Program-made: the position numbers and the translations under genes
Shown: positions 21,399-38,151 of the stretch, in pieces
How the letters are laid out: each line of letters begins with the position of its first letter
Numbering within the stretch: the first letter of the stretch is position 1
Source: Abditibacteriaceae bacterium
Lineage (GTDB): Bacteria > Armatimonadota > Abditibacteriia > Abditibacteriales > Abditibacteriaceae
DNA: 61,636 nucleotides
Direction: 5' to 3'
Assembly (NCBI GenBank): GCA_031425655.1
Contig: JANPJS010000292.1
Span: 1-61,636, forward strand
The notes under the pieces: generated by a model
Seen by the model: the letters and a program-made list of their open reading frames with translations, nothing else
The model's database searches: none
What the model was told of the DNA's origin: nothing

Positions 21399-22235
21399 TT
21401 ATTTTGCCTTGCGCGCCAACTGAGTCAGCACGGCTTGTTGCGCTGTGTAATGCTCCTTGAGACGCTCCTGCATCCGGTCGGGCAAGGCTTTGACTTCCTT
21501 ATAAGAGCCAACCGGGTAAAGAGGATTGAATGTCTCCATGAAGCCGCGCATTTTTTCCATGCGCTGACGCATTTCCTGCATCTGCTGCGCAGTGGGTGGC
21601 GCTCCGCCGAAGCCGCCGCCCGGCCCGCCGGGGCCACGCATTCCGCCGAAGCCGCCCGGCCCGCGCATTCCGTCTTGTCCACCGGGGCCGCGCATTCCGC
21701 CGGGGCCGCCCGGCCCACGCTTGTCATCGTGATCTCGTGGCCCGCGCATCCCGCCGGGGCCGCCGTCTCGTCCCGGCCCGCCGGGGCCGCGCCCGCCGAA
21801 GCCTCGGCGAGGCGGTTTCATCGCGGCTAACGCGGTTTTTTGCGGCGTCGTCAGAAAGCTGTTGAGCTTGGCCGAGACGCTTTTGGCTTCAGCTTCGCTC
21901 ATTTTCGGCTTCTTCTGCCAGACTTTAAGCGTTGCCACGATTTTCTTCGCCTGATCTTTAGAAAGAGGCGTCTTTTTCTGCGTTTCCAGCACGCCAATGC
22001 CGCGAATCAAGCCGCCGATTTGCATTTTTGCATTTCGACGAAAGCTGCCCGGCCCACCAGGACCACGCATTCCTCCGGGGCCGCCCGGCCCGCGCATTCC
22101 ATCGCGCTTTCCGTCATGACCTTGCATCGCGCCGGGGCCATCGCCATGCCCTTTATATCCGCCCGGCGGCTGGGCTTGCGCTACCAAAGGCATCAGTAGC
22201 GCCGCCATACCCGCTAATTTAACAATCGTTTTCAT
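21399..22235 (-). CDS. Secreted Gly/Pro-rich hypothetical protein (GGPGGMRGP repeats)
   Basis: AGGAG RBS; signal peptide ending AQA; helical core LSKDQAKKI...LTTPQK between low-complexity blocks. Confidence 0.8.
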   Translation of the reverse strand: MKTIVKLAGMAALLMPLVAQAQPPGGYKGHGDGPGAMQGHDGKRDGMRGPGGPGGMRGPGGPGSFRRNAKMQIGGLIRGIGVLETQKKTPLSKDQAKKIVATLKVWQKKPKMSEAEAKSVSAKLNSFLTTPQKTALAAMKPPRRGFGGRGPGGPGRDGGPGGMRGPRDHDDKRGPGGPGGMRGPGGQDGMRGPGGFGGMRGPGGPGGGFGGAPPTAQQMQEMRQRMEKMRGFMETFNPLYPVGSYKEVKALPDRMQERLKEHYTAQQAVLTQLARKAK

Positions 22236-22273
22236 GTCGTCTCCTGTTCGGCAGAACGGCTGCGCTTTGAAGC

Positions 22274-22347
22274 GCGGGGCTAACGCCCTCTTCCAAACTT
22301 GCGCCTATGATGCGACTTTGTTTGGAAGAGCGCGTTAGCCCCGCTAC
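22274..22347. repeat. REP-like inverted pair
   Basis: gcggggctaacgccctcttccaaac (22274-22298) versus gtttggaagagcgcgttagccccgc(tac) (22320-22347), one mismatch. Confidence 0.75.
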
Positions 22348-22390
22348 GCAAGGTTTAGTGCCATCCATTACTCGGCGTTTGCGTTCGGTT

Positions 22391-23239
22391 TCACGCTCCG
22401 GCTCGCGGAGTGTTGCCGCCCTGACCATCGCGTCCGCCACGTCCGCCGCGCCCGCCGCGTGGGTTTCCACCCTGTCCGCCGCCTTGTGCTCCGCCTTGTC
22501 CGCCACCTAAGTTCGGCCCGCCTCCGAAACCGGGGCCGGGGCCGTCTTGACCGCCGCCACCGCCCGGCCCGCCACCACCCGGCCCGCCACCGCCCGGCCC
22601 GCCAAATCCGCCGCCTCCACCGAAGCCACCGCCACCAAATCCGCCACCGAAGCCTCCACGACCGCCACCACCAGCAGCGGCGCCTTCGGCGACGGCCATT
22701 TCATCGCCGGTGAGACCGAGCAGAGTCAGCACGGCGGCCAAGCGCGGCTGCGTGCTGTATTTAATTTTCTCGTCCAGCGCGGTCAGTGCGGTTTTGCGCC
22801 GTGCGGTTTCGTCTTCCACACCGCCACGAAAGCCGTTCATCAAGGCGCTCACTTGTGCGTTGCTGCTGGCCTGATCGTAGGCCGAGCGCATCAGTTCGCG
22901 GTTCTTGTCTCGCAGCGTTTGCGTTGCGTTTTCTTGCGCTATCGAGAAGGCCACGATAGCGTCCTGCACCGCTTTGTCGGTGACTTCAGCGTTTTCCAGC
23001 ATCAAGCGCAGCGTGCGGTCGCGCATGAAATCGCGCATTTCTTCCATCAGCGTGTCGCGCTGTTCGGGTTTCAGATTGCGAAAATCGGGCGGCTGCGGCG
23101 CGCCATCGCGGCCACCTCCGAAACCGGGGCCGCCGCCGGGCGCCGGTTGAGCCTGCACGGCGCTCAGCGTCGTGCCCATCGCGGCTCCCAGAGCCAAAAA
23201 CGTCGTCAGCCATTTGCGTTGTGTTGAATTCTTTGTCAT
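22391..23239 (-). CDS. Secreted Gly-rich hypothetical protein, paralogue of 23271-24005
   Basis: Signal peptide; shares PDFRNxxPEQR, QDAxVAF, ARRKTAxTALD and KYSTQPRL with its neighbour. The longer ORF to 23428 is an off-frame read of the neighbour's repeat. Confidence 0.8.
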   Translation of the reverse strand: MTKNSTQRKWLTTFLALGAAMGTTLSAVQAQPAPGGGPGFGGGRDGAPQPPDFRNLKPEQRDTLMEEMRDFMRDRTLRLMLENAEVTDKAVQDAIVAFSIAQENATQTLRDKNRELMRSAYDQASSNAQVSALMNGFRGGVEDETARRKTALTALDEKIKYSTQPRLAAVLTLLGLTGDEMAVAEGAAAGGGGRGGFGGGFGGGGFGGGGGFGGPGGGGPGGGGPGGGGGQDGPGPGFGGGPNLGGGQGGAQGGGQGGNPRGGRGGRGGRDGQGGNTPRAGA

Positions 23240-23270
23240 GGGTTTCATACCTTTTAATGTCGCTTGCGCG

Positions 23271-24005
23271 TTATCGTCTCGGAGCGTTGCCGCCATCACC
23301 ACCACGGCCTCCGCCGCCAAAGCCTCCGCCGCCAAAGCCTCCGCCGCCAAAGCCTCCGCCGCCAAAGCCTCCGCCGCCAAAGCCACCGCCGCCAAAGCCG
23401 CCACCACCGAAGCCGCCACCGCCGCCAAAGCCTCCCATCATGCCGCCGGCAGCGTTGCCGCTGTTTAGCAGCAAAGCCTCGTCGCCGATAATGCCGAGAC
23501 TTGTCAGCAACGCGGACAAACGGGGCTGCGTGCTGTATTTAACCTGAATATCGAGCGCGGTCTGCGCGGTTTTGCGGCGCGCTTTTTCGGCGGCGGCGGC
23601 ATCCTGAAATTCTTTGAGCAAGGCCGCAATTTTCGCATCCGGTGTGCCTTTGGTGCTGACTGCTTCGACCAGCTTGCGGCTTTTTTCGCTCAGCGATTGT
23701 GTTGCGGTGTCCTGCGTATTCGCAAATGCGACAACCGCGTCTTGGGCCGGCTTGGCCGTGAAAGCGGCGTTGGTCATCATGCCGCGCACCATGCCCTCGC
23801 GCATCTGAGTGCGCATCTGCTGCATCGCCGCCGTGCGTTGTTCGGGCGTCATGTTACGAAAGTCGGGGCGATTGCCGCCTCCCTGCTGCCAGTTCTGCGG
23901 GTTTTCGCCCGCTCCGGGCGCGGCGATGTTGGGCTGAGCCAGCGCGGCGCCCGTCAGGCACAGCGAAAGCGCCAGCGGCGCGGCGATTCTCAATTTCTGT
24001 TTCAT
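23271..24005 (-). CDS. Secreted hypothetical protein with C-terminal (GGGGF)n tail
   Basis: GGAG RBS; signal peptide ending ALA; about 8 GGGGF units encoded by a 15-bp tandem repeat. Confidence 0.82.
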   Translation of the reverse strand: MKQKLRIAAPLALSLCLTGAALAQPNIAAPGAGENPQNWQQGGGNRPDFRNMTPEQRTAAMQQMRTQMREGMVRGMMTNAAFTAKPAQDAVVAFANTQDTATQSLSEKSRKLVEAVSTKGTPDAKIAALLKEFQDAAAAEKARRKTAQTALDIQVKYSTQPRLSALLTSLGIIGDEALLLNSGNAAGGMMGGFGGGGGFGGGGFGGGGFGGGGFGGGGFGGGGFGGGGFGGGGRGGDGGNAPRR

Positions 24006-24290
24006 GTTGTTCTCCATTTCCTATGGCGTTATCCGGCTGTCAACCGGTTTGTGTTTTATATTTTATGCGCTGCCGCCCCCGCTGTTGGTGAACCGCTCTT
24101 GAAGAAACGTGAGATTTTGTGAAGGGAGGCGGCGCAGATTGCTCTCGTGCAGGAGCGACCAGAAGATTCCGTAATGCGCTCAGGACGCGATCAAAAGTTT
24201 TCTTCGGCACTTTGTAAACTTACAGCGCAACAGCAGCTTCTGTCGAGATGGCTCTGCCTGTTGTTGAAGCTAATCAAATCACTTACTGCG

Positions 24291-25415
24291 ATGATTTACC
24301 TTGACCATAACGCCACCACGCCGATTTTGCCGGAAGTGCGCGAAGCGATGCTGCCGTATTTCACTGATGAATGGGGCAATGCGTCCAGCAGCTATCGTTT
24401 CGGCTCGAAACTCAAAGGCGTGATTGAAGCGGCGCGCGGCGAAGTGGCGTCGTTGATTGGTGCCGGTGCGCGTGAAATCATCTTCACCGGCTGCGCGACC
24501 GAAAGCAATAATGCGGCGATTCATGCCGCGCTCAAAGCCAATCCCGCTAAACGTCACATTATCACTTCGCAAGTCGAGCATTCCGCTGTGCTGCAAACCT
24601 GTCAGGCGTGGGAAAAAGATGGTTATCGCGTCACCTATCTCGGCGTTGACCGCAACGGCTTGTTGGACTTGGGCGAGTTGGAAAGCGCGCTTTCGGACGA
24701 AACCGCCGTTGTCTCGCTGATGTGGGCCAACAACGAAACCGGCGTGCTGTTTCCGGTGCAGCAAATCGGCGAACTCTGCCGCGAACGCGGCGTGCTTTTT
24801 CACTGCGATGCCGTGCAAGCCATCGGCAAATTGCCCGTTGATTTATCGAAAGTGCCGATAGATTATCTGGCCTTAGCCGGACACAAAATCAACGCGCCCA
24901 AAGGCATCGGCGCGCTTTACGTCCATCGCAAAGCGCCGTTTACGCCCCTTTTGCATGGCGGGCATCAGGAAAAAGGCCGGCGCGGCGGAACCGAAAACGT
25001 CGCGCTCATCGCCGGATTGGGTAAAGCCGCCGAGTTAGCTAAAAAACGCCTGCCCGATTACGACAAATCTGTGAGCCCACTGCGCGACGCTCTGGAAAAA
25101 GGCATCCTCGAAGCGATTCCCTGCGCCGAACTCAACGGCCACAAAACGCAGCGATTGCCCAACACAACTAACATCACATTTCGCGGCATCGAATCCGAGA
25201 GCCTGCTTTTGCTGCTGGACGGCGAAGACATCTGTGCCTCATCCGGCTCCGCGTGCCTCGCCGATTCCGACGAGCCTTCGCACGTCGTCAAATCCATGAA
25301 ACCCAACACCGACGCCCGCCAAACCGTGCGTTTTTCGCTGGGCATGGGGAATACAGCGGATGAAATTGGGCGCGTGGTGGAAACCGTGAAGCAGGCGGTT
25401 GAGGCGTTGGCATAG
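24291..25415 (+). CDS. dndA: Cysteine desulfurase (group I, IscS/NifS type), probable DndA sulfur donor
   Basis: MIYLDHNATT, ATESNN, VEHSAV, MWANNETG, HCDAVQ, GHKINAPKG, SSGSAC; stop lies 7 bp from the end of the dnd operon. The dndA label rests on context. Confidence 0.85.
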   Translation: MIYLDHNATTPILPEVREAMLPYFTDEWGNASSSYRFGSKLKGVIEAARGEVASLIGAGAREIIFTGCATESNNAAIHAALKANPAKRHIITSQVEHSAVLQTCQAWEKDGYRVTYLGVDRNGLLDLGELESALSDETAVVSLMWANNETGVLFPVQQIGELCRERGVLFHCDAVQAIGKLPVDLSKVPIDYLALAGHKINAPKGIGALYVHRKAPFTPLLHGGHQEKGRRGGTENVALIAGLGKAAELAKKRLPDYDKSVSPLRDALEKGILEAIPCAELNGHKTQRLPNTTNITFRGIESESLLLLLDGEDICASSGSACLADSDEPSHVVKSMKPNTDARQTVRFSLGMGNTADEIGRVVETVKQAVEALA

Positions 25416-25422
25416 CGGAAGC

Positions 25423-26706
25423 TTATTTCAATTTGCACACACGTTTGTAATCGACTTGCTCATCCTCGTCCAGATCACTGAATTTTCTGATGCCAAGGCA
25501 GAGTTCCAAACTCTTGCGAATTCTTTGTTTCCCTCTGCCTGACGCTTCAAAGAAGTGATCAGAAAAGTCGATTTCCGCACACGGCTTCATCCGTTCCTCA
25601 AAAAATGCTTGGCTTATATCCCTTCTCTCAGGTGCTACGGCTTCTACACAAAGCGTTTTGAGAACGTCAAATAAAGCCTGAATGCCAACGGTCTTTTGGA
25701 TGGAGGTTGATGCGGCATCCCGCCACAACAATTTACTGACTGCGTTGAAGTAATTATTAACAAGAGTGTAAATGACTAAATCCCGATTAGCTAAAAAATA
25801 TCCACGCAGAGGCGACCTATCCGCAGGCTTAATTTCACTTAACAATCCACGTTCGCGCCCACCCCCCAACTCTTTTTTCAGCATTAAATCTCGATCACGT
25901 TTCGGATTACTGGCAAAAAGAGTTAGCAATCCCTCGACAATAGTAGCTGTCGAAACAATCCATTTTTCCCCTTTCTCTTTAGCTGCGGCTTTGAGTGACT
26001 CTTCATCCTGAGCTGCAACTGAAATATGTCCTTTAAATACTGATTTCGCATCCGTGTTTAATTTACGGCAAATAAAAACGGCTGCTTTATCAGGAGACCA
26101 AGATTCAGGCGGTTCTTTCTCAATGCTGTATGCAAAAAGTTCATAAGTTAAACTTTTATCGACTTGCTTTTGGTTGAAGTTGATGGTTGCAAATAATCCC
26201 GCTTGATAAGCGTTGGGTAAATCTAAAAAAACTGCACAAACTAAGGGCATATCTTGTCGGCCTGGAATAGATGTTTTCTCAAATCCATAAAGCCTATGTT
26301 GTCCGTCAACAACAGCAGCAATTTTGTCTAATGAAGGGATTAGTAATTGTCCAGTCATACGATCTGAAAACAATTCTACAGACCACCTTTTCATTCCTTC
26401 AAACTCGTCTGTTTCTTCAATCAGTTTGCCGGTTTGGTTATCGTAATTCGCTGCCAAAATAATGGAATTAGGCAGGCAAGATTCAACTCCATCTAAATAG
26501 CGGCCTATAGCTTTTAGACGATCTTCATCTAATCGACGTTGATTCCCTTCGGGTTTGTAACCTACTGTGTCCGAGGCCTCCATTTCCACCCAATCAACGT
26601 AAGCCACTTTTAGCAAAACGTTGGCAGGAATAGAACAAACAAAAAATTCACCAAGTGGTTGCACCACTCGCAGCACAGGAAAACGCAAAGGCAGTTCGAA
26701 AGTCAT
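25423..26706 (-). CDS. DGQHR domain protein (DndB-like superfamily; phosphorothioation-associated DGQHR type)
   Basis: QPLGEF, GNQR, PNSIILAAN, VVDGQHRLYGF, FATINFNQKQVDKSLTYELF; visibly AT-rich. Confidence 0.9.
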   Translation of the reverse strand: MTFELPLRFPVLRVVQPLGEFFVCSIPANVLLKVAYVDWVEMEASDTVGYKPEGNQRRLDEDRLKAIGRYLDGVESCLPNSIILAANYDNQTGKLIEETDEFEGMKRWSVELFSDRMTGQLLIPSLDKIAAVVDGQHRLYGFEKTSIPGRQDMPLVCAVFLDLPNAYQAGLFATINFNQKQVDKSLTYELFAYSIEKEPPESWSPDKAAVFICRKLNTDAKSVFKGHISVAAQDEESLKAAAKEKGEKWIVSTATIVEGLLTLFASNPKRDRDLMLKKELGGGRERGLLSEIKPADRSPLRGYFLANRDLVIYTLVNNYFNAVSKLLWRDAASTSIQKTVGIQALFDVLKTLCVEAVAPERRDISQAFFEERMKPCAEIDFSDHFFEASGRGKQRIRKSLELCLGIRKFSDLDEDEQVDYKRVCKLK

Positions 26707-26708
26707 TT

Positions 26709-27215
26709 TCAGCTCCCACGAAAATCAGACAGATCACCAGGCAACTCTTCTTTTGGATTGCCACCCATTGCTGCCTCCTGAGAGATAGGTTTATCCGCTA
26801 AGTCCGGGTTCTCTCCATTTGCTATCCACCACAAGAACAGCGATAGGATTGTTCCGAATATAGCTGGATACATGGACCGCTCAGGACTTGGCCCAAAGGC
26901 TACCAAGACTGCACAACCAAATGCAATGACACCGCAGATTGAAAGCACTACCTTCGTTGGCTTTTCCAGATCAAGTTTGAGTTGAATGTCAACGAGAGCA
27001 GTGGCAGCGACGGCAACAAAATAAGAGTAACTTGCCGTCACGATTGTCTTGAGAAGTTCGGTTTTCGGCAGCGAGCCAAACCACCACCACCGCAGCACTG
27101 GTTCCCATAGGCCAAAACTACCTAACCCTACAACACAGCCAAAAAAATAAAACCAAAAGGTCTCTTGCTTCATGGGCTGGCACAACCGCCGTTTAAGGTC
27201 AGTAGAAAAAATCAT
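26709..27215 (-). CDS. Hypothetical 4-TM membrane protein in the dnd operon
   Basis: Four hydrophobic segments; GAGGAAGGA before ATG 27215; stop 2 nt before the DGQHR start; AT-rich. Confidence 0.75.
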   Translation of the reverse strand: MIFSTDLKRRLCQPMKQETFWFYFFGCVVGLGSFGLWEPVLRWWWFGSLPKTELLKTIVTASYSYFVAVAATALVDIQLKLDLEKPTKVVLSICGVIAFGCAVLVAFGPSPERSMYPAIFGTILSLFLWWIANGENPDLADKPISQEAAMGGNPKEELPGDLSDFRGS

Positions 27216-27237
27216 GGTAAAAAATTCCTTCCTCTTC

Positions 27238-28713
27238 TCACTTTCCTCCATCCCGCCAGAATTGCCGGGCGGGGCCTGATTCCAATTTGCCACCTAAACG
27301 CAGGGCGGCTTCGGCTTTTTCAAGCTGTTTGGTTATCGTGGTGCCTAAAATCTTCTTTTGCTGAGAGGCATTCAGCGTGTGCGGCGAAAAGTGGATGCCT
27401 GCCGAGGCGAGGTCGGCGAAGTCGGCGCCCGCGCTGAGAAACTTGTCGGCGTCTTGGGAAGCGAGCCACAACGGGAAGCCCCACGAGCGGCCTTCGCGCG
27501 CCAAGCGTTCGAGCAGTTTGGCTTTGCCGTCTTTGGGCAGGATGTTGTGCGCTTCGTCCACGAATAGCACCATTTGCAGGGGCTGGATGCCGTCGCGGAT
27601 GGAAAGGTTCTGGTTGAGGCGTTCGATGAAAAAGTTGAGGATAAAAGCCACGCTTAAGGCCCGTGTATCGTTGTCCAATGGCTTGAAATCAATGACAATC
27701 GAGCGCGCCATCCATTCCTCGAAGGGCCGGGCGGCGTTCGCTGCGGCGAAGATGTTGAGGTCGAGCAGCTTGCTCAGGATGGAAATGGCGACGCCTTTTT
27801 CGCCGTCCTTTTTGAGTTCGGCGACCAGCGAGGCGAAATCGGGCTTTTTCAATTGCTGGTAAGCGGTGCGAATGGCTTCTTCCTGATTGGCGCCCATTTG
27901 CGGCCCGAAAGAGCGCACTAATGACGCGATGCGCGAAGCGATATTGGCGGTTTCGGGTGCGGTCTTGCCGACGAAAAGTGGGTTGATGGGCAGACTGTTG
28001 TCAATCAGGCGCAAATACTGCGCGCCGGTCTGCTCGAAAAAGCGGGCGCGGTTAGCCGCTTTTTGGCGGTCGTCAACAGCGATTTCGAGTTCGCCTTTCA
28101 AGTCGAAGAACAGGAATCTCATGCCCTGACGCGATAGCTGCGCCAGTAAATCGAGGGCAAGCTGGCTTTTGCCCGAACCCGGCTCGCCGGAAATCACCAG
28201 CAGGCCGTTGTTGGTTTCCGGGCCGTTCATGCTCCATTCTTCGGCATCGTTTAGCAGCTTTAGCTTGACTTCTTTTTCGACAATCGCTTGCGTCGAAGCG
28301 CTGCCTCGTGCAGTGTGCGAATCGGTGATAGGCGCGCCCGCACCAGCGATTTTTAACAGTTCCGAGACAAAACGAACTTGGTCGTTGCCGCTGTTTTCCC
28401 ACAGTTGTTTCAAGCGAAAGCAGCCGTATTCAAAGTGCAAGCGGAATTGTTGGCGATAAGCGGTTTCATCGAGCGTGCGCCCGGCGCGATGATTCAAGGC
28501 CGAGCGCACGACATCGCGCAGGTCATCGCCGATGACGGTTTCGTCGTCTAAATCCTTGCCGCCCGAATCGGCGATTTTGAACGCGGGCGCGACGCCTTCG
28601 CCGAGCGCCAAAAACAGCGCCGAACGCCCTAAAACCGCCTTATTGCGCGCTCCAACACGGGCGTGGATGTTTTCGATGAACTCTTCGGCGGCTAAGCTGG
28701 GTTTAAATCTCAT
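27238..28713 (-). CDS. dndE: DndE-like N-terminal domain fused to a HerA/DUF87-type P-loop ATPase (DndEi-like)
   Basis: N-terminal about 105 aa with DndE-like pattern (NKAVLGRSALFLAL, GKDLDDETVIG, FRLHFEYG); Walker A GEPGSGKS; FFDLKGE; Walker B LFVDEAH; REGRSWG; LASQ. Confidence 0.78.
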   Translation of the reverse strand: MRFKPSLAAEEFIENIHARVGARNKAVLGRSALFLALGEGVAPAFKIADSGGKDLDDETVIGDDLRDVVRSALNHRAGRTLDETAYRQQFRLHFEYGCFRLKQLWENSGNDQVRFVSELLKIAGAGAPITDSHTARGSASTQAIVEKEVKLKLLNDAEEWSMNGPETNNGLLVISGEPGSGKSQLALDLLAQLSRQGMRFLFFDLKGELEIAVDDRQKAANRARFFEQTGAQYLRLIDNSLPINPLFVGKTAPETANIASRIASLVRSFGPQMGANQEEAIRTAYQQLKKPDFASLVAELKKDGEKGVAISILSKLLDLNIFAAANAARPFEEWMARSIVIDFKPLDNDTRALSVAFILNFFIERLNQNLSIRDGIQPLQMVLFVDEAHNILPKDGKAKLLERLAREGRSWGFPLWLASQDADKFLSAGADFADLASAGIHFSPHTLNASQQKKILGTTITKQLEKAEAALRLGGKLESGPARQFWRDGGK

Positions 28714-29101
28714 TTTCCGAATCTCTGCTGTTTTGCGGTTCGTAGCTTTTGAATTCCCATTCGACTTCGCGTTTTAACCAACGATAAACTGCCGCCATCG
28801 CCGCCTCGCGGGTTGGGAAAAAAGCGCTGCCGTTGACGAACGTATAAGTGGCATCGTTAGCTTGTTCGTGTATCAAAGTAATTGGGCTTTGCTCGTCCTG
28901 ATTTTCGACACTGTTATGCCAATCGCCCCATGCGAACCATGAACCATCAATCGCCGGAGCGACGTAAAAGCGATTTTCTCCGGCGTGATTAACGTCCATT
29001 AAACGAGCGACACAGGTTTTTTGGTCGTGGGCAAAGGTGCGGTTTTCTTGGTCAATACCAAGTTCTTCGTGATGAAGCGCGTAATGCTGCCAACTCGTCA
29101 C
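28703..29101 (-). CDS. Hypothetical 132-aa protein between dndD and dndE
   Basis: ATGA overlap with the dndD stop and 11-nt overlap with the dndE start; GGGAGG RBS; no motif recognised. Confidence 0.65.
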   Translation of the reverse strand: MTSWQHYALHHEELGIDQENRTFAHDQKTCVARLMDVNHAGENRFYVAPAIDGSWFAWGDWHNSVENQDEQSPITLIHEQANDATYTFVNGSAFFPTREAAMAAVYRWLKREVEWEFKSYEPQNSRDSENEI

Positions 29102-30048
29102 AGCGTCCTCCCGAAATAATCGCCGCTCACGCGCACCTGATAATCAACGCTGTCTTCTTCGCCATGCGGATGCAGCGTGTAAACGCGCGCCAGTCGCCCG
29201 CTGATATTTTTGAAAAGCGGCCCATTGGGATCAATTTCCGAATTGGTGGTGAGAATCAGCGATTGGTGGCCGCTGAGGTAAAGCTGGTCGAGCACATTAG
29301 CGCGCACTTCCAAATCGAGGCGTCCCAGCGGCGTATCAACCACCAGCGGCGGCTTGAGGCGCGCCATGCGGCGCAGCGCTTCGTAAAACGCCAGCATTCG
29401 CACTTGTCGCTGCCCTGCCGAAGTGTTGGTGTCTTCCCACGCCACACGCTCGCCATCTTGACGCACCAAGAAACAACGCCAGTGTGAATCGAATTCGAGA
29501 CTTTTGAATTCGCGTTCGCGCTCGACGATTTGCGTCCATAATTCGCCGACGCCTTGTGAAATCTGCTCGCGCAGTTGCACCGCAGCGACTTCGCGGATGC
29601 GCTTGGCGGCTTCGCGGTAACTTGAGACAAGGGACGCTAAATTTTGCCCTTTTTGCATCTTCGCGCGCGTGTCGTCCAAGAGGGTTTCCTGCCCGCGTAG
29701 TTCAGTCAGGCTTTTATCGAGATTGGTGATTTCGACGAACAAATCTTCGTGTTGCTTTTGCAATCCGGCGTGTTTGCGCTTCAAGTCGCCGCGACGCTCA
29801 TGCAACTCCTGCCCGCGTTCGAGCGAAAAGCGGTTGCTTTGCATTTGCTTGAGGCGTGTGTCGAGTTCGCTCAAGTCAATACCGGGCGTTTCCAATTTGC
29901 GGCAGCGCTCATCCAAGTCGGAAATCGCTGTCGGATTCCCTGTCACCAAAGCGCGAACCTGCGCGCTGATGTCGTTGCGAGAAGTGAGAAACGGACTGCC
30001 TTCGCTCATGCCTTCGGGCGGCGGATGAAACAAGCGATGCAAGGCTTT
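29098..30048 (-). pseudogene. dndD: C-terminal half of DndD (SMC-like ATPase); Walker A half missing
   Basis: Coiled coil then SAGQRQ (signature), PLVVDTPLGRLD (Walker B/D-loop) and QSLILTTNSEID. In-frame TAA at 30049-30051, no Walker A and no convincing start; about half the usual DndD length. Confidence 0.8.
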
Positions 30049-30087
30049 TTAGAAGATGGAGGAGGAAAATACGTCGAAGTTATCTGT

Positions 30088-30993
30088 TTATATGCTGCCG
30101 AGTTTGTTTTTGCGGTGCCAATCGAGGTGTTTTTTATCCGGCCAATAATTGCGGTCTTTAGGAAGATGGATTTGCGTGCCTGCTAATTTCAAGAGGGAAA
30201 GTGCTTCGTTGCCGGATTCGTGAAAGCGCCAATCGGCGACGAGGACACGGTAATCATTATCGAGCGACCACAAACCCTGATCGAACATCCAATGGGCATT
30301 TTTGGATAGAGCGATGCCATTTTGCGGATGATTATTGCGGCTATCGGAAAATTGGTGAATATGCGCGGCGTCAACGATGCTGCCCGCACCTACAGTAATT
30401 AGGCGGTAACGTGTTAAAGCACAGGTGTAATTGTAGGCCGGAACGACGGTCAAACGAAAACGGGCCTCGCGTCCTCGTTCTTGTGCTGCTTCGTAAAGTT
30501 TGGCATCGGCTTGCACAATATCATCGGGCGGAACAGGCAAACCAACAAGATCATAAAGTGCGGCGCGTTCAGTGGAATCTTCAAAATACTTCGCAATAAG
30601 CACACGCCGCAAATGTTCACGAAAATCAGAGTCTTGCAAACACGCAAAAAAATCCTTGTCTAATTGCACAGCAACAGCGCGGCGTTTTTCCAGAGTTGGC
30701 TGTCCGGTTTCATCCAATGGTGTCCAAACACCTGAGCTTTTCAAGTGATAAAACGGCAAGTGAATTTCTGGTTTTTGCGGACGACGCGCTGCAACAATTG
30801 TCCAAAAGGCAAGAAAGCGAAAAGCGAGTTCGCCGGTAAGTTCTAAGAGGGGCTGCGATAGTTTGTTTTGCTCGGCAAGTTCGGCGATAACTAATAAAAG
30901 AAGCGGCTGATGCGGTGCTGGCCCGGCGCTACGATCAATACGAAGGTTAGCAACACTTTTTAACCAATATTCAGTTTGAAGCGATTCGTTCAT
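30088..30993 (-). CDS. HNH endonuclease with N-terminal SBD-like (sulfur-binding) domain; putative phosphorothioate-dependent restriction enzyme
   Basis: N-terminal LRIDR..APHQPLLLL ... LPFYHLKSSGVW; C-terminal REARFR..V..AYNYTCALT, DAAHI, NHPQNGIALSKNAHWMFDQG, LDWHR. Confidence 0.82.
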   Translation of the reverse strand: MNESLQTEYWLKSVANLRIDRSAGPAPHQPLLLLVIAELAEQNKLSQPLLELTGELAFRFLAFWTIVAARRPQKPEIHLPFYHLKSSGVWTPLDETGQPTLEKRRAVAVQLDKDFFACLQDSDFREHLRRVLIAKYFEDSTERAALYDLVGLPVPPDDIVQADAKLYEAAQERGREARFRLTVVPAYNYTCALTRYRLITVGAGSIVDAAHIHQFSDSRNNHPQNGIALSKNAHWMFDQGLWSLDNDYRVLVADWRFHESGNEALSLLKLAGTQIHLPKDRNYWPDKKHLDWHRKNKLGSI

Positions 30994-31001
30994 TTCATCC
31001 G

Positions 31002-32297
31002 TTAGTTTTGGCTGGTTTTCAATTTTTGTTCTGCTAATTCATCATTCAAAATCCGCACTAACTCGTCGGGCAAACCGAAGCGGCGATGGCTTTCGGAGTA
31101 TTCTTCGACTTTGGAAACCAGGCGGCGCAGCGTTTCGTGCGACAAGTGTTTTTCTTCGCAAACCTGTTCTTCCATGAGGCGCAGTTTGTCCATTTCTTTG
31201 AGGTCGTTCATCATGATGCCTTTGTGTTGATGCACGATGCGCGCGACGCCGTTGCCGTCGTCGGGTTTGCGCGCCGAGTTCCAAAATCGTTGAATCAACA
31301 ACAATTCCTCCTCGTTAATGAGCTTCAAAGCCGTTTCTTCCTGCAAATCCAGCAAGCGCGTCAATAATTCGCGGCGCGCATCCATCGTCAAAGGGCCGGG
31401 GCCGTCGTTGCCATTCATGCGCCGCATATCGCGGTAGCCGTTTTCCGGTTCGCGCACTGTTAATAAAATATCGCGGAACGAAATCAGCTTTTCCATGCGC
31501 TCGTCGCCCGCATTCATCAAGCCCTCGCTGGCCTTGTCTTTATCCACGACGGTGCAAGTCCAGCAGCCAAAGCGCGAATTGCCACAACTGGGCGTGCTTT
31601 TATCAATCTGCACCGGGCATTCGCCGCCCGACGCATCGGCATACAAGCGATACAAATCGCGGTTGCTGCCTCCCCACGGCGGCTTTTTTTGCAGCAGATA
31701 TGCCCACACTTCTTCGGTCGTCAGATGCTCAATCGGATTATTAATCCACACGCGCGGCAAATCGTTGTGCTTGCGTAATCCGCCGCGAGTTTCGCGCTTG
31801 GCCATCGTTTGGGCGCGGCTTGAACTTTCGGCGCGGCGTGCTCCCAGTTGAAAAATCGCTTCGCCCCAGTGTCCGACGCGGTTTTCGACAAAGCGCGACA
31901 TCGGATCAATTTTCAAGCGCGAAGTGCACCAGCGAAACACGCGATTGGGCGGCGGATAACCGCGCCCGATGACATTCACCCAGAACGATTGCTCGGCAGG
32001 CGGACGCAGCAAATGCACTTCGATGTTGAGTTTGTTGGCATCCGAGCATTTTTTCATGCGCGCAAGCGTGGTTTCGACCATTTCGACGATGGCCGGAATT
32101 TCCACGCGCGTGTCGCTGCACAAAATGGCAATCGGTTTGGTGCGCTTTTCGGGCGCGAGGCCCAAAACCACATCGAAAATCAGCGACGCAACCATCGAGC
32201 TGTCTTTGCCGCCGCTAAAACCGACGAGCCATGGTCGTTCGTCTTCAAGATAAAGGGTTTCGAGATTATCGCGGATTTCGCTAAAAAGAGTGGACAT
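31002..32297 (-). CDS. dndC: DNA phosphorothioation sulfurtransferase DndC (PAPS reductase family)
   Basis: PWLVGFSGGKDS, DTRVEIP, FWVNVIGRGYPPP, RWCTSRLKIDP, GECP, CGNSRFGCWTCTVV. Confidence 0.95.
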   Translation of the reverse strand: MSTLFSEIRDNLETLYLEDERPWLVGFSGGKDSSMVASLIFDVVLGLAPEKRTKPIAILCSDTRVEIPAIVEMVETTLARMKKCSDANKLNIEVHLLRPPAEQSFWVNVIGRGYPPPNRVFRWCTSRLKIDPMSRFVENRVGHWGEAIFQLGARRAESSSRAQTMAKRETRGGLRKHNDLPRVWINNPIEHLTTEEVWAYLLQKKPPWGGSNRDLYRLYADASGGECPVQIDKSTPSCGNSRFGCWTCTVVDKDKASEGLMNAGDERMEKLISFRDILLTVREPENGYRDMRRMNGNDGPGPLTMDARRELLTRLLDLQEETALKLINEEELLLIQRFWNSARKPDDGNGVARIVHQHKGIMMNDLKEMDKLRLMEEQVCEEKHLSHETLRRLVSKVEEYSESHRRFGLPDELVRILNDELAEQKLKTSQN

Positions 32298-32464
32298 AAG
32301 AAGTGGTTTTGCCCAAGTATAAGCCATGTGCTGAGGTAAAGAAAAAGCCGCTCAGAGTTTGTTTACTGATTACCTCGAACCTTTAATCGCGGCTAAGGCA
32401 TTCGCGCCGTTTACTTTTCCGCCCCCGCGCCGCGCTTTGTATCCTTATGTATGAGGAAAATTCC

Positions 32465-34537
32465 ATGACTTTATCGAAATTCATTTCTGGCGCCGCAGTT
32501 GGCGCGGCGTTGATGACAACGCAAATTATCGGGCCGTCACACGCCGAGGGCTTGCACTATTACGACCCGGCGGCAGTCAAGCCATTGGCGCAAACGCTGG
32601 AAACCGACATTTGCATTTATGGCGGCACTTCGGCGGGCGTGGTGGCGGCGCTGCAAGCCAGTCGCATGGGAAAAAAGGCGATCATCCTCGAACAAAACGC
32701 GCATTTAGGCGGCATGAGTTCGGGCGGGTTGGGCGAAACCGACATCGGCAACAAAGCCGCAATCGGCGGCGTATCGCACGAGTTTTACAAGCGCGTCGGC
32801 CAGAAAAACGGCATGGCCGAAAACTGGAAATTCGAGCCGCACATCGCCGAACAGGTTTTTATAGAAATGGCGCAGGAAGCCAAAGCGCCGGTTTTCTATC
32901 GCCAGTTTTTGAAATCCGTCGAGAAAAACGGCGCGCGATTGCTTTCCATCACGATGGAAAGCGGCCTCACTGTCCGCGCCAAATTCTTCATTGACGCCAC
33001 TTACGAAGGCGATTTGATGGCGAAAAGCGGCGTGAAATATCATGTGGGCCGCGAAGCCAATGCGGTTTACAACGAAACCGTCAATGGCGTTCAAGTGCGC
33101 GGCGCCCATCAATTCGACCGCGCGGTTAGCCCTTATATTGTCGAAGGCGACGCGAATAGCGGCCTTTTGCCCGGCATCAATGGCGGCGACCCCGGCGAGC
33201 AGGGATCGGGTGATAAGCGAGTGCAGGCTTATAATTTCCGGCTGTGCCTGACCAAAGTGCCCGAAAACCGCATCGCTTACGAAAAGCCCGCAGGCTACAA
33301 TCCGCTGGAATATGTCTTACTGGCGCGACTTCTTAAAGCCGGCTGGCCCGAAAGCGAGGTTTTTCGGAAATTCGACCCGGTTTTCAATAAAAAAGTAGAT
33401 AAAAACAATCACGGCGCGGTTTCGACCGACTTTATAGGCCGCAACTACGATTGGCCCGAAGCCGATTACGCGACCCGCGAGAAGATGTTTCAAGCGCACG
33501 TCACCTATCAAAAAGGCTTGATGTGGTTCTTGGGCAACGACCCCAGCGTGCCCGAAAGCATTCGCACCAAATGGAGTGAATGGGGCTTGCCCAAAGATGA
33601 ATTTCAGGATACGGGCGGCTGGCCGTATCAACTTTACGTGCGCGAAGCGCGGCGCATGATTTCGGATTACGTGATGACCGAGCATAATTGTCGGGGCAAA
33701 ATCGTGGTCGAAGACCCGATTGGCATGGCGGCTTACACGATGGATTCGCACAACTGCCAGCGCTTTGTCAAAAACGGGCGCGTGTGGAACGAAGGCGATG
33801 TGCAAGTCGGCGGCTTTCCGCCGTATCCGATTTCTTATCGCTCGATTGTGCCGAAAAAGGCCGAATGCGAAAACTTGGCTGTTCCGGTTTGCCTGTCCAC
33901 TTCTCACATCGCTTACGGCTCGATTCGCATGGAGCCGGTTTTTATGCTGCTCGCTCAATCGGCGGCGACGGCGGCCTCGATGGCGATAGATGAAAAAATC
34001 GCCTTGCAAGACGTGAGTTACGCCAAACTGCGCGAGCGCCTTTTGGCCGACGCGCAAATTTTGGAATGGAAAGGCAAACCGGCGACCGCGGAAAACGACC
34101 AGAACCTCCCATTGCGCGCTTTGACCGGACTTTTGGTGGACGACGCGCAAGCCAAAAAAACCGGCGAGTGGATTGATTCGCCGCGCAACGAATTTCGTGT
34201 CGGGACGGGCTACATTCACGACGACAACGCGCGCAAAGGCGAGCTTTCCATCGCTTTTACACCGCAGATTTCCGAAGCCGGCGAATACGAGTTGTTTTTC
34301 GTTTTCACGCCCAACGGCAACCGCGCCTCGAACGTGCCGGTCACCGTAGCAATTGACGGCAAAGACGTGAAAACCATTGCGGTTAATCAAAAGCCGCCCG
34401 GCGAAGGCGTGGTTTCGCTGGGCAAATTTCAGCTTGCCAAAGGCGCCGGAGCGACGGTTACGATTTCCAATAAAGGCACCGACGGCTTCGTCGTCGTGGA
34501 CGGAGTGCAGGTTGTGGCGTCGAAGCCGGCGAATTGA
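32465..34537 (+). CDS. Secreted FAD-dependent oxidoreductase (xanthan-lyase-annotated type) with C-terminal beta-sandwich domain
   Basis: Signal peptide; IYGGTSAG, GGMSSGGLG, FIDATYEGDL, YVREARRM, MDSH, YGSIRMEP; GAGG RBS. Confidence 0.9.
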   Translation: MTLSKFISGAAVGAALMTTQIIGPSHAEGLHYYDPAAVKPLAQTLETDICIYGGTSAGVVAALQASRMGKKAIILEQNAHLGGMSSGGLGETDIGNKAAIGGVSHEFYKRVGQKNGMAENWKFEPHIAEQVFIEMAQEAKAPVFYRQFLKSVEKNGARLLSITMESGLTVRAKFFIDATYEGDLMAKSGVKYHVGREANAVYNETVNGVQVRGAHQFDRAVSPYIVEGDANSGLLPGINGGDPGEQGSGDKRVQAYNFRLCLTKVPENRIAYEKPAGYNPLEYVLLARLLKAGWPESEVFRKFDPVFNKKVDKNNHGAVSTDFIGRNYDWPEADYATREKMFQAHVTYQKGLMWFLGNDPSVPESIRTKWSEWGLPKDEFQDTGGWPYQLYVREARRMISDYVMTEHNCRGKIVVEDPIGMAAYTMDSHNCQRFVKNGRVWNEGDVQVGGFPPYPISYRSIVPKKAECENLAVPVCLSTSHIAYGSIRMEPVFMLLAQSAATAASMAIDEKIALQDVSYAKLRERLLADAQILEWKGKPATAENDQNLPLRALTGLLVDDAQAKKTGEWIDSPRNEFRVGTGYIHDDNARKGELSIAFTPQISEAGEYELFFVFTPNGNRASNVPVTVAIDGKDVKTIAVNQKPPGEGVVSLGKFQLAKGAGATVTISNKGTDGFVVVDGVQVVASKPAN

Positions 34538-34557: not shown

Positions 34558-34763
34558 AATGGCATTAAGTTAGTGAAAGAAGAGCAGCTTCGCTGCTCCT
34601 GAAAACCCCCAACCCCCTTGGTAAGGGGGCTAAGTTCAAACGCTACGGCACTATTCCAACTTGGCTTTGTGCAACAGCGTAATAAATTTAGCCCCCTTAC
34701 CAAGGGGGTTGGGGGTTTTCAGGAGCAGCGAAGCTGCTCTTCTTTCACTAACTTAATGCCTTA
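34558..34763. mobile_element. MITE-like element with 73-bp perfect inverted arms and IS4-like ends
   Basis: 34561-34633 is the exact reverse complement of 34688-34760; flanks ggcgttagccc and gtcgtcagccc match at 9 of 11 positions; the inner CCCCCTT..AAGGGGG motif recurs at 61522. Confidence 0.7.
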
Positions 34764-34803: not shown

Positions 34804-35031
34804 ATGGCGAAAGAAAGCACTCAAAAAGCCACGCAACCGGCGGGCAATCCGATTTTTGAAGTCGGCTCGGCGAAGCCAGTGAAAAGCCCGATTCGCTGTG
34901 GCATTGTCGGTTTGGGGCGCATCGGCTGGTGCCATCACGCGCAGACGATTTCGCAGCACGGCGGCTTTGAACTCGCCGCCGTGTGCGATGTGGAAGCGGA
35001 GCGCCTTGACGAAGCCAAAGCCTTAGCGAAT
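34804..35031 (+). pseudogene. Duplicated 5' fragment of the downstream Gfo/Idh/MocA gene
   Basis: 34825-35031 aligns without gaps to 37045-37251 (offset 2220) at roughly 90% identity; reads in frame into the next gene. Confidence 0.85.
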
Positions 35032-36830: not shown

Positions 36831-36958
36831 AGTGGAACACGGATTTCACGGAAACGACACGGATTTGCGCGGTTAACAAGGAAAAGGTGTGCTTGGCAGA
36901 GTCACCTCCAAGAAATCCGTGTTGATCCGTGTCGTTTCCGTGAAATCCGTGTTCCATT
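36831..36958. repeat. GGAACACGGAT-family palindromic element, copy 2
   Basis: tggaacacggatttcacggaaacgacacggat ... atccgtgtcgtttccgtgaaatccgtgttcca. Confidence 0.85.
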
Positions 36959-37002
36959 AAAAGTCTTGATTGCAGCCGATGTAACAACAACGGAGCAAAA
37001 TT

Positions 37003-38151
37003 ATGGCAAAAGAAAACCTGAAAAAGAACGAAAAAGCCGCCCCGAAAGCCACGCAACCGGCGGGCAATCCGATTTTGGAAGTCGGCTCGGCGAAGCCAGT
37101 GAAGAATCCGGTTCGCTGCGGCATTGTCGGATTGGGACGCATCGGCTGGTGCCATCACGCGCAGACGATTTCGCAGCACGGCGGCTTTGAACTCACCGCC
37201 GTGTGCGATGTGGAAGCCGAGCGCCGCGACGAAGCGAAGGCGGCGGCGAACTGCGCGACGTATGCGCGGTTTGAAGAATTGCTGGCCGATAAAAACATCG
37301 AATTAGTCATCGTCGCCACGCAATCGGTTGACCACGAAGCGATGACGATTGCCGCGCTCAAAGCCGGTAAGCACGTTTTGTGCGAAAAGCCGGCGGCGCA
37401 AGGCGCGGCGGGCGTCAAACGTATGATCGCGGCGGCCAAAAAGTCGGGCACGCTGCTGACGATGCACCACAATTATCGGCTGAACCCGGAATTTCTTTAC
37501 GTGCGCGAAGTGATGCAAAGTGGCATTTTAGGCAAAATCGTGCGCATGAAGCGCAGCCATCAGGGTTTCGCGCGGCGCAACGATTGGCAGGTGCTGCGCA
37601 AATACGGTGGCGGCATGACCGGCAACTGGGGCATTCATCTTGTGGACGCCTGCCTGCAACTGCTCGATTCACCGGTGCAAGATGTTTGGGGCGATGTGAA
37701 GCAGGTTTTTAATCCCGGCGATGCCGAAGACGACATCAAAGCCATCATTCGCGGGACGAGCGGCATGACTTTGGACATTGACATGAACAGCACCAACGCC
37801 GCGCCCGAACCGAGTTGGGTCGTGGCCGGCGATTGCGGAACGCTTTGGCTCGACGGCAAAACCGCGCATATTAAGTTCTTCGAGCGCAAAAAGCTGCCCA
37901 AACTCGCCGTCAACGATTTGCACTTGGCTTTAGGCCGCGCTTACGGCGTGCAGCCCAACCCCGATTTAATTCCGTGGCAGGAGCGTGAAGAAGCCATCGT
38001 GCCCAAAAAGAAGTATGCGAGCTTCTACGACAACCTTTTCGATGCGATTCGCAAGCAAAAACCGTTGCTCATCGAGCCGGAAAGCGCCTTACGCACTTAC
38101 GAAGTGCTGGACAAAATTCGCAAAGGCAGCCGCTTTGCGCCGGGGAAATAG
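37003..38151 (+). CDS. Gfo/Idh/MocA family oxidoreductase
   Basis: GIVGLGRIG, ALKAGKHVLCEKP, GGGMTGNWGIHLVD; GGAG RBS. Confidence 0.93.
   Translation: MAKENLKKNEKAAPKATQPAGNPILEVGSAKPVKNPVRCGIVGLGRIGWCHHAQTISQHGGFELTAVCDVEAERRDEAKAAANCATYARFEELLADKNIELVIVATQSVDHEAMTIAALKAGKHVLCEKPAAQGAAGVKRMIAAAKKSGTLLTMHHNYRLNPEFLYVREVMQSGILGKIVRMKRSHQGFARRNDWQVLRKYGGGMTGNWGIHLVDACLQLLDSPVQDVWGDVKQVFNPGDAEDDIKAIIRGTSGMTLDIDMNSTNAAPEPSWVVAGDCGTLWLDGKTAHIKFFERKKLPKLAVNDLHLALGRAYGVQPNPDLIPWQEREEAIVPKKKYASFYDNLFDAIRKQKPLLIEPESALRTYEVLDKIRKGSRFAPGK

Follow-up and report, generated by a model that had tools for sequence, protein, structure and literature searches.

We report on a DNA phosphorothioation (PT) locus at positions 24291 to 32297 of a 61,636-nucleotide (nt) stretch from an Abditibacteriaceae bacterium (contig JANPJS010000292.1, assembly GCA_031425655.1). 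This stretch, hereafter the window, is one entire contig of a 5.98-Mb metagenome-assembled genome (MAG; G000) that is 97% complete and consists of 327 contigs. Between dndC and what is left of dndD lies an endonuclease gene that joins a sulfur-binding domain (SBD) to an HNH domain. The arrangement points to a PT writer locus of the DndEi type that has probably been converted into a PT-restriction locus by a cassette switch, that is, a known writer variant in a cutter-converted and probably inactive state. As the same swap occurs repeatedly in related clusters, a single chromosomal position seems to alternate between a state that marks DNA and one that attacks DNA so marked. The new part is the recurrent writer-to-cutter replacement; the backbone is already known. 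We found no description of such a swap in the open-access literature; the supplement of PMC7461809 might hold such cases.

An SBD-HNH gene replaces the 5' half of dndD

The dndD of the window survives as a remnant of 314 amino acids (aa), which aligns to residues 372-687 of the intact 687-aa DndD of a related locus (L002) with 79% identity. The ABC signature, Walker B and H-loop are present in the remnant, and Walker A is absent. The distance from the dndC stop to a shared dndD landmark is 1,135 nt in L002 and 968 nt in the window, nearly all of the latter being HNH gene. Furthermore, an in-frame stop (30049-30051) lies in the aligned dndD stretch, just upstream of the open frame. Together the results show that the SBD-HNH gene has replaced the Walker A-encoding 5' half of dndD and does not merely interrupt the gene. 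We also considered a split dndD with its N-terminal half encoded elsewhere, and rejected it, as neither tblastn nor TIGR03185 found a DndD N-terminal half in the genome, which is 97% complete.

HNH and intact dndD exclude each other in related loci

We collected 89 related loci from 7 GTDB contigs, the best 80 of 258 confirmed metagenome stretches and 2 genomes of the family, leaving out six short duplicates (L008-L013); with the window the set numbers 90. Both dndC and the gene for a DndE-ATPase fusion are present in 60 of the 90. Among these, 51 carry an intact dndD without HNH, and in nine the HNH gene is present and dndD is either broken or lacking; mixed loci do not occur. At 95% identity the 60 loci form 49 clusters, two of which contain both states. 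The raw Fisher p for exclusion, 7e-11, is overstated because kin among the loci are not independent. Rakesh et al. proposed that dnd-adjacent SBD nucleases are restriction partners of the writer (PMC10853773); the absence of any locus with both HNH and intact dndD among the 60 argues against that model for this HNH family.

The breakpoints vary, and the HNH loci are scattered over the trees. Across the nine HNH loci the dndD remnant starts at residue 334, 370, 372, 373, 378, 420 or 511, and two loci have no remnant. In trees of the fusion, of DndC and of the C-terminal half of DndD, the HNH loci are spread over about seven positions, with intact loci as neighbours. On the DndE-ATPase tree the HNH state changes 8 times, compared with 8.6 times under shuffled labels, and for six of the nine HNH loci the nearest DndE-ATPase comes from an intact locus; only parsimony and nearest neighbours were used to assess whether the HNH loci are monophyletic. 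Separate lineages show the same HNH-for-dndD replacement, and in every case dndD is broken or missing.

Searches from the side of the nuclease gave a similar picture. The HNH profile matched 41 of 401 genomes of the phylum, and 30 loci were retrieved. Five of them are close members (G000, G116, G266, G347 and G252), all lying after dndC and none with an intact dndD. The 25 distant SBD-HNH loci showed no full-length dndC match within 1.5 kb, with one weak partial match downstream. A sample of another phylum (301 genomes) yielded two close members without dndC, one of them beside a 5' scrap of a convergent iscS, and viral contigs yielded one close relative with no dnd genes alongside. No complete writer was found genome-wide in eight HNH genomes, several of them incomplete (G000, G116, G266, G347, G252, G402, G406 and G695). 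G406, which has a close HNH and a full DndD above the cut-off, was considered as a counter-example and rejected: its DndD, together with a DndE-ATPase, adjoins an N6-methyltransferase, and a search of the genome, for which no completeness is given, found no dndC. In this locus (L139, G406:C3:58000-76000) an N6-methyltransferase/HsdR_N protein and RhuM are coupled to DndD and a DndE-HerA/FtsK fusion.

The HNH loci can be arranged as a decay series. The fusion gene of L005 carries a nonsense codon. D and E are missing in G347 and G252, where the fusion was not found and dndC is intact. In G406 the HNH gene stands beside a lone iscS scrap, and dndC was found neither there nor in G695.

Allele pairs carry a footprint of recombination

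Exchange by homologous recombination within one species-level group is visible in two pairs of loci, both of them relatives of the window. L078 (HNH) differs from L077 (intact) at 4 sites in the first 300 nt and at none in the downstream 5,157 nt. Between these matching flanks lie a diverged dndC end (82%, 61% identity), the HNH gene and a dndD arm of ~130 nt (71%). The arm of L078 holds changes at conserved sites, e.g., W to C and E to G, and the HNH frame can begin at dndD's own ATG. The L077/L078 tract bears the marks left when one allele replaces another through homologous recombination. Likewise, L091 compared with L086 shows a step from 65-72% rising to 96-100% identity. A foreign cassette with homologous arms that recombines into a writer locus explains both pairs.

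The SBD-HNH nuclease

The SBD-HNH protein has two domains in 301 aa. Its SBD matches the solved SBD of Hga (8H0L; E=2e-5 with the single sequence, E=1.2e-12 with profile A2), and its HNH triad H211/N225/H234 is invariant in profile A2. The family is large (2,107 matches). HNH genes are under purifying selection, with a ratio of nonsynonymous to synonymous substitution (omega) of 0.05-0.12. The HNH gene of L001 carries 19 one-base insertions, yet its omega is 0.07 on gap-free codons. These insertions are either assembly error or recent decay, and L001 is therefore counted as an HNH locus with that caveat.

The protein resembles SBD-HNH PT-dependent restriction endonucleases such as EcoWI and SprMcrA, and the SBDs of ScoMcrA and Hga, in its two domains, HNH triad and SBD His and Pro (PMC7461809, PMC6224610, PMC3009677). 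It differs from them in its setting, as its gene takes up the position of the dndD 5' half within a writer operon, and in having Gln for Lys/Arg at the sulfur-contact site.

Layout and backbone of the locus

Seven minus-strand open reading frames (ORFs), overlapping or separated by at most 45 nt, face a plus-strand cysteine desulfurase gene. All eight were judged real:

31002..32297, minus strand: dndC, PP-loop sulfurtransferase (TIGR03183, 395.9 bits, cut-off 290.4)
30088..30993, minus strand: SBD-HNH endonuclease (HNH_2 above cut-off; NF045808, 115.7 bits, cut-off 180)
29098..30042, minus strand (to 30051 with the in-frame stop): dndD 3' remnant, 314 aa (TIGR03185, 73.7 bits, C-terminal part only)
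28703..29101, minus strand: orf132, 132 aa, no family
27238..28713, minus strand: DndE-HerA/FtsK ATPase fusion (PF08870 over residues 2-102, plus a HerA/FtsK-like ATPase)
26709..27215, minus strand: four-transmembrane (4-TM) membrane protein, 168 aa, no family
25423..26706, minus strand: DGQHR protein (TIGR04172, 417 bits, cut-off 450; TIGR03187 above cut-off)
24291..25415, plus strand: iscS, in the IscS/DndA role (PADLOC DndA, 485 bits)

Coordinates and family scans agree with the first-pass annotation, which had described seven minus-strand ORFs converging on a cysteine desulfurase. It had rightly recognized a dndD fragment and overlooked that the HNH gene replaces the missing half. Its remark that the HNH, 4-TM and DGQHR genes look AT-richer than the dnd core also holds, and orf132 is likewise AT-richer. 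GC content is 47.7% in HNH, 48.4% in orf132, 48.5% in 4-TM and 41.9% in DGQHR, compared with 53-57% in the dnd core and 56.7% in the genome; GC at third codon positions in these four genes is 0.36-0.50 versus 0.64-0.69. Promoter and terminator counts are those expected by chance.

DndC and the fusion keep their catalytic motifs. dndC likely starts at the ATG at 32297, with the reading frame open up to 32327, and its product has the motifs SGGKDS, CTSRLKIDP and RFGCWTC intact and a weakly matching, fused C-terminal tail like Sp-DndD (PF20306, E=0.018, residues 387-423). The fusion has Walker A, Walker B and R-finger intact, matches the PADLOC DndH/HerA models and PDB 7ES4 DptH (E=3e-10), and has 834 homologs among 8,000 candidates scored. 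A convergent iscS lies downstream of the fusion in 61 of the 90 loci and is the fixed far boundary of the cassette. In two plasmid loci, L136 and L137 (NZ_CP006373 and NZ_CP013565), dndC, a small protein, dndD and an FtsK-annotated gene are followed by a TusA-family sulfur carrier, which occupies the place of the cysteine desulfurase in other loci.

The dndC-dndD-DndE::HerA/FtsK array facing iscS is an already described variant of the DndEi type (summarised in PMC6435447), the fusion adjoining DndD being clade-3 of Rakesh, Aravind and Krishnan 2024 (PMC10853773). As in those systems, the window has a DndE-ATPase fusion beside a DndD-type ABC ATPase, dndC and a cysteine desulfurase, and no DndFGH was found. 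It differs in that DndD has no N-terminal half, dndB is absent, and a variable cargo slot precedes an iscS that is convergent. For DndFGH, TIGR03236-8 gave no match in the genome, and the same models were silent in every control. The PADLOC DndH model, positive in 4 of 14 controls, matched only the DndE-fused ATPase in the genome. Nor does the locus resemble the PbeABCD/CxC systems with their HKD-helicase PbeA and CxC ABC ATPase: a search for PbeA limited to the eight ORFs gave no match, and the dndD remnant scores best with DndD.

The cargo slot and its 4-TM and DGQHR genes

In 61 loci the slot between the fusion and iscS contains 35 sequence clusters, of which 20 are singletons. In 28 loci it is occupied by a DGQHR protein and in 13 by a GHKL ATPase with a methyltransferase-fold gene: this last pair, GHKL ATPase and Methyltransf_35, is an alternative cargo found at L004:6879-9241 and in 12 other loci. 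In 26 of the 28 DGQHR loci (e.g., L002, L014, L015, L020, L024, L034, L043 and L053) the DGQHR gene has an upstream partner of 160-240 aa. These partners belong to several unrelated membrane families or are soluble proteins, and none of 11 scanned matches PADLOC.

The 4-TM family has 42 homologs and occurs in 11 loci; in nine of these the DGQHR gene is next, and the other two reach the contig edge. Homologs also occur on six plasmid records, and in all five that were opened the gene precedes a DGQHR gene, near dnd-type genes of varied layouts. The structure model of the 4-TM protein is all helical (predicted local distance difference test score, pLDDT, 91.7). It matches no consistent Pfam family, Atlas matches of a homolog are hypothetical proteins only, and fold searches returned generic helical bundles.

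The DGQHR protein matches TIGR04172 over nearly the whole profile, below the cut-off, and adjoins dnd genes. Its model (pLDDT 92.2) has an N-terminal ParB/Srx fold, with PadC 6RYK at Z 8.4 and a root-mean-square deviation of 2.7 over 99 residues. TIGR04172, 'DNA phosphorothioation-associated DGQHR protein 1', is a described satellite of PT systems (PMC3226654). The protein of the window is like this family and likewise lies next to dnd genes; it differs in having a constant upstream 4-TM partner. We found no family model for such a partner of TIGR04172 and no mention of it in the literature. IscS-DndBCDE-DndI (PMC11662687) also employs a DGQ(H/Q)R-motif NTPase, for PT-linked defence without DndFGH. 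The DGQHR protein of the window is not DndI: DndI joins DUF262 to HNH and spares PT DNA, whereas the DGQHR protein has no HNH domain and the HNH of the window belongs to a separate SBD protein.

The 4-TM and DGQHR genes are independent of the rest: a mobile pair that accompanies dnd loci as a satellite and sits in the variable cargo slot. Our best guess at its role, a tentative one, is a ParB-like sensor of nucleoside triphosphates with a membrane effector; a predicted complex of the two proteins scored 0.26, the mark being 0.32. The pair is a small, clonable candidate for an accessory module.

orf132 occurs in 2 of the 90 loci. In the sister locus L001 its match is the C-terminal half of a longer ORF (201 aa), the head of which belongs to a recurrent family of 85-100 aa. 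Proteins of 85-100 aa without a Pfam family lie between dndD and DndE-ATPase in ~30 loci (L004:5099-5380, L014, L077).

Other features of the window

A palindromic element of ~114 bp (34604-34718) and a shorter repeat (~36835-36960) resemble repetitive extragenic palindromic (REP) sequences or miniature inverted-repeat transposable elements (MITEs), and both match many sites on both strands of three genomes of the same genus. The start of a 657-aa ORF is a near copy of the N-terminus of a downstream 382-aa oxidoreductase-like ORF (34804-35030 and 37003-37200), which suggests a local duplication. At 21399-24017 lie three tandem minus-strand genes for secreted-looking proteins with long Gly/Pro-rich repeats (GGPGG, GGGGF); the one scanned gave no useful Pfam match.

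Points against the conversion, and alternative explanations

Several observations weigh against a conversion from writer to cutter. The surveyed loci are metagenome contigs and MAGs that include kin. Identity between the window and its best intact partner is only 79-86% and no near-identical intact partner was found, so that the footprint of a swap is seen in relatives and not in the window. Close HNH relatives also occur without dndC (L126, L131 and L132). DndC, the fusion and IscS of HNH loci show no excess of conserved-site changes, and five of the nine HNH loci keep the C-terminal half of dndD nearly whole in an open frame. The remnant has an omega of 0.07-0.13 in two HNH/HNH pairs (the window with L001, and L015 with L017), which is unexpected for a long-dead gene and needs recent swaps or refreshing by recombination. 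Synonymous divergence of HNH above that of the flanks in two pairs helps this explanation; the low omega also leaves room for a retained function. The remnant shows an excess of conserved-site changes (p=0.027), mostly common to intact sisters.

The nuclease itself raises further points of this kind. In the sulfur pocket of its SBD, H28 and P80 are present, and Gln29 stands where Lys or Arg is usual: 110 of the 120 closest relatives have His-Lys-Pro, the window has His-Gln-Pro, and Gln is kept in 9 of the 120. The position is equivalent to R117 of ScoMcrA, where R117Q reduced PT binding (PMC6224610), and the sub-lineage of the window may therefore bind PT weakly or differently. The NF045808 score, below cut-off over the full profile, suggests a divergent subfamily.

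A further reading, which we consider unlikely, is that SBD-HNH is a selfish, modification-directed homing element. On entry into a PT-positive cell it would cut the PT-bearing chromosome, and the survivors would be cells in which it had recombined into dndD, destroying the writer and thereby the target of the nuclease. If so, writer and cutter alleles would alternate in populations across phyla, and the Gln variant of the window could be an attenuated version that makes establishment easier.

It is improbable that HNH is ordinary defence cargo, inserted several times independently behind dndC, with dndD deleted later against self-cutting and no cassette exchange. Consistent with this idea, the family of the HNH has many members, some of which occur by themselves (L126, L131), the breakpoints vary, and L064 has a NERD-domain gene between dndC and HNH. 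However, diverged homologous arms flank HNH inside otherwise identical DNA, the 60 loci hold no intermediate with HNH and intact dndD, and no tRNA integration site, target duplication or integrase was seen around the block in the window.

There is also a small chance that the HNH allele is a working derived system, which retains DndC, IscS, DndE-ATPase and half of DndD, e.g., to mark invader DNA for SBD-HNH. The intact motifs of DndC and the fusion, the lack of conserved-site decay in DndC, fusion and IscS, the low omega of the remnant and the intact dndC of G347 and G252 despite the loss of D and E all fit such a system, as does the fact that four Abditibacteriaceae-type loci break within 9 codons of one another. 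The length of the remnant, in contrast, ranges from 354 aa to nothing, the decay series includes a nonsense codon in the L005 fusion and genomes in which the fusion (G347, G252) or dndC (G406, G695) was not found, and donor arms are visible in L078 and L091.

The first-pass annotation had offered two accounts of the interleaved genes and saw in the locus the window's best candidate for an undescribed system. The first account, that all of them form one conserved PT-linked defence operon in place of DndFGH, is now very improbable. The genes are co-directional and tightly spaced, and 4-TM with DGQHR recurs near dnd genes in distant taxa. Against it, the full seven-gene set occurs in 1 of the 90 loci, the cargo slot is highly variable, the window alone among the nine HNH loci has the 4-TM family, and HNH never accompanies an intact dndD. 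We thus rejected a fixed seven-gene system on the locus survey, and with it the undescribed one. The second account, serial cargo in a defence slot, describes 4-TM, DGQHR and orf132 well, and recurrent linkage to dnd loci, which the annotation proposed to check, is real for the 4-TM and DGQHR pair and for HNH. Finally, an assembly or binning artefact as the source of the missing dndD half can practically be dismissed: the genome is a MAG in 327 contigs and the matching run is a possible source, but an unbranched 8,125-nt contig from that run spans 24717-32841 with 0 differences, a 151-nt piece of another study bridges the HNH/dndD junction (29998-30148, 2 differences), and eight other loci are alike.

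A proposed switch between marking and cutting

We propose that conversion of a writer into a cutter would proceed as follows. A cassette would recombine into a writer locus through arms formed by the 3' end of dndC and a stretch within or downstream of dndD. Having lost the half of DndD that carries Walker A, the cell would no longer write PT, and SBD-HNH would be read from the dnd operon's own transcript. The nuclease would cut PT-marked DNA, be it that of phages or plasmids from PT-positive hosts or, if a writer enters, the cell's own chromosome, and a cell with the cutter allele may thus restrict PT-marked DNA or block re-entry of the writer. A single recombination event would gain the cutter and kill the writer, as in DpnI/DpnII, and the leftover dnd genes would be lost later. 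SBD nucleases and dnd are lethal in combination (PMC3009677). Since no cell can hold writer and cutter at once, the cutter may spread as a cassette.

The nearest parallel is the exchange of DpnI/DpnII cassettes in Streptococcus pneumoniae (PMC2993543, PMC12707154). There, as here, a modification-dependent cutter and the matching writer are mutually exclusive alleles exchanged through flanking homology (DpnI/DpnII, and DpnIII). The modification is methyladenine in that case and backbone sulfur in ours. Furthermore, the arms here are the writer's own genes, hence the writer is truncated rather than removed, and the exchange is seen in at least two phyla-level samples compared with one species.

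These findings bear on why PT-cutting nucleases sit in PT-writing clusters: in this family the writer is replaced, not partnered. This runs against the model of PMC10853773 and supports a guess made by Lutz et al., who counted <3.6% of SBD-HNH genes in the neighbourhood of dnd clusters and named mutation of such clusters as one possible reason (PMC7461809). Defence-system finders will count HNH-converted loci as PT writers. L077 and L078 are a natural near-isogenic allele pair. The cassette switch would be the PT counterpart of the DpnI/DpnII switch, and it offers a route by which PT modification may have come to its patchy spread.

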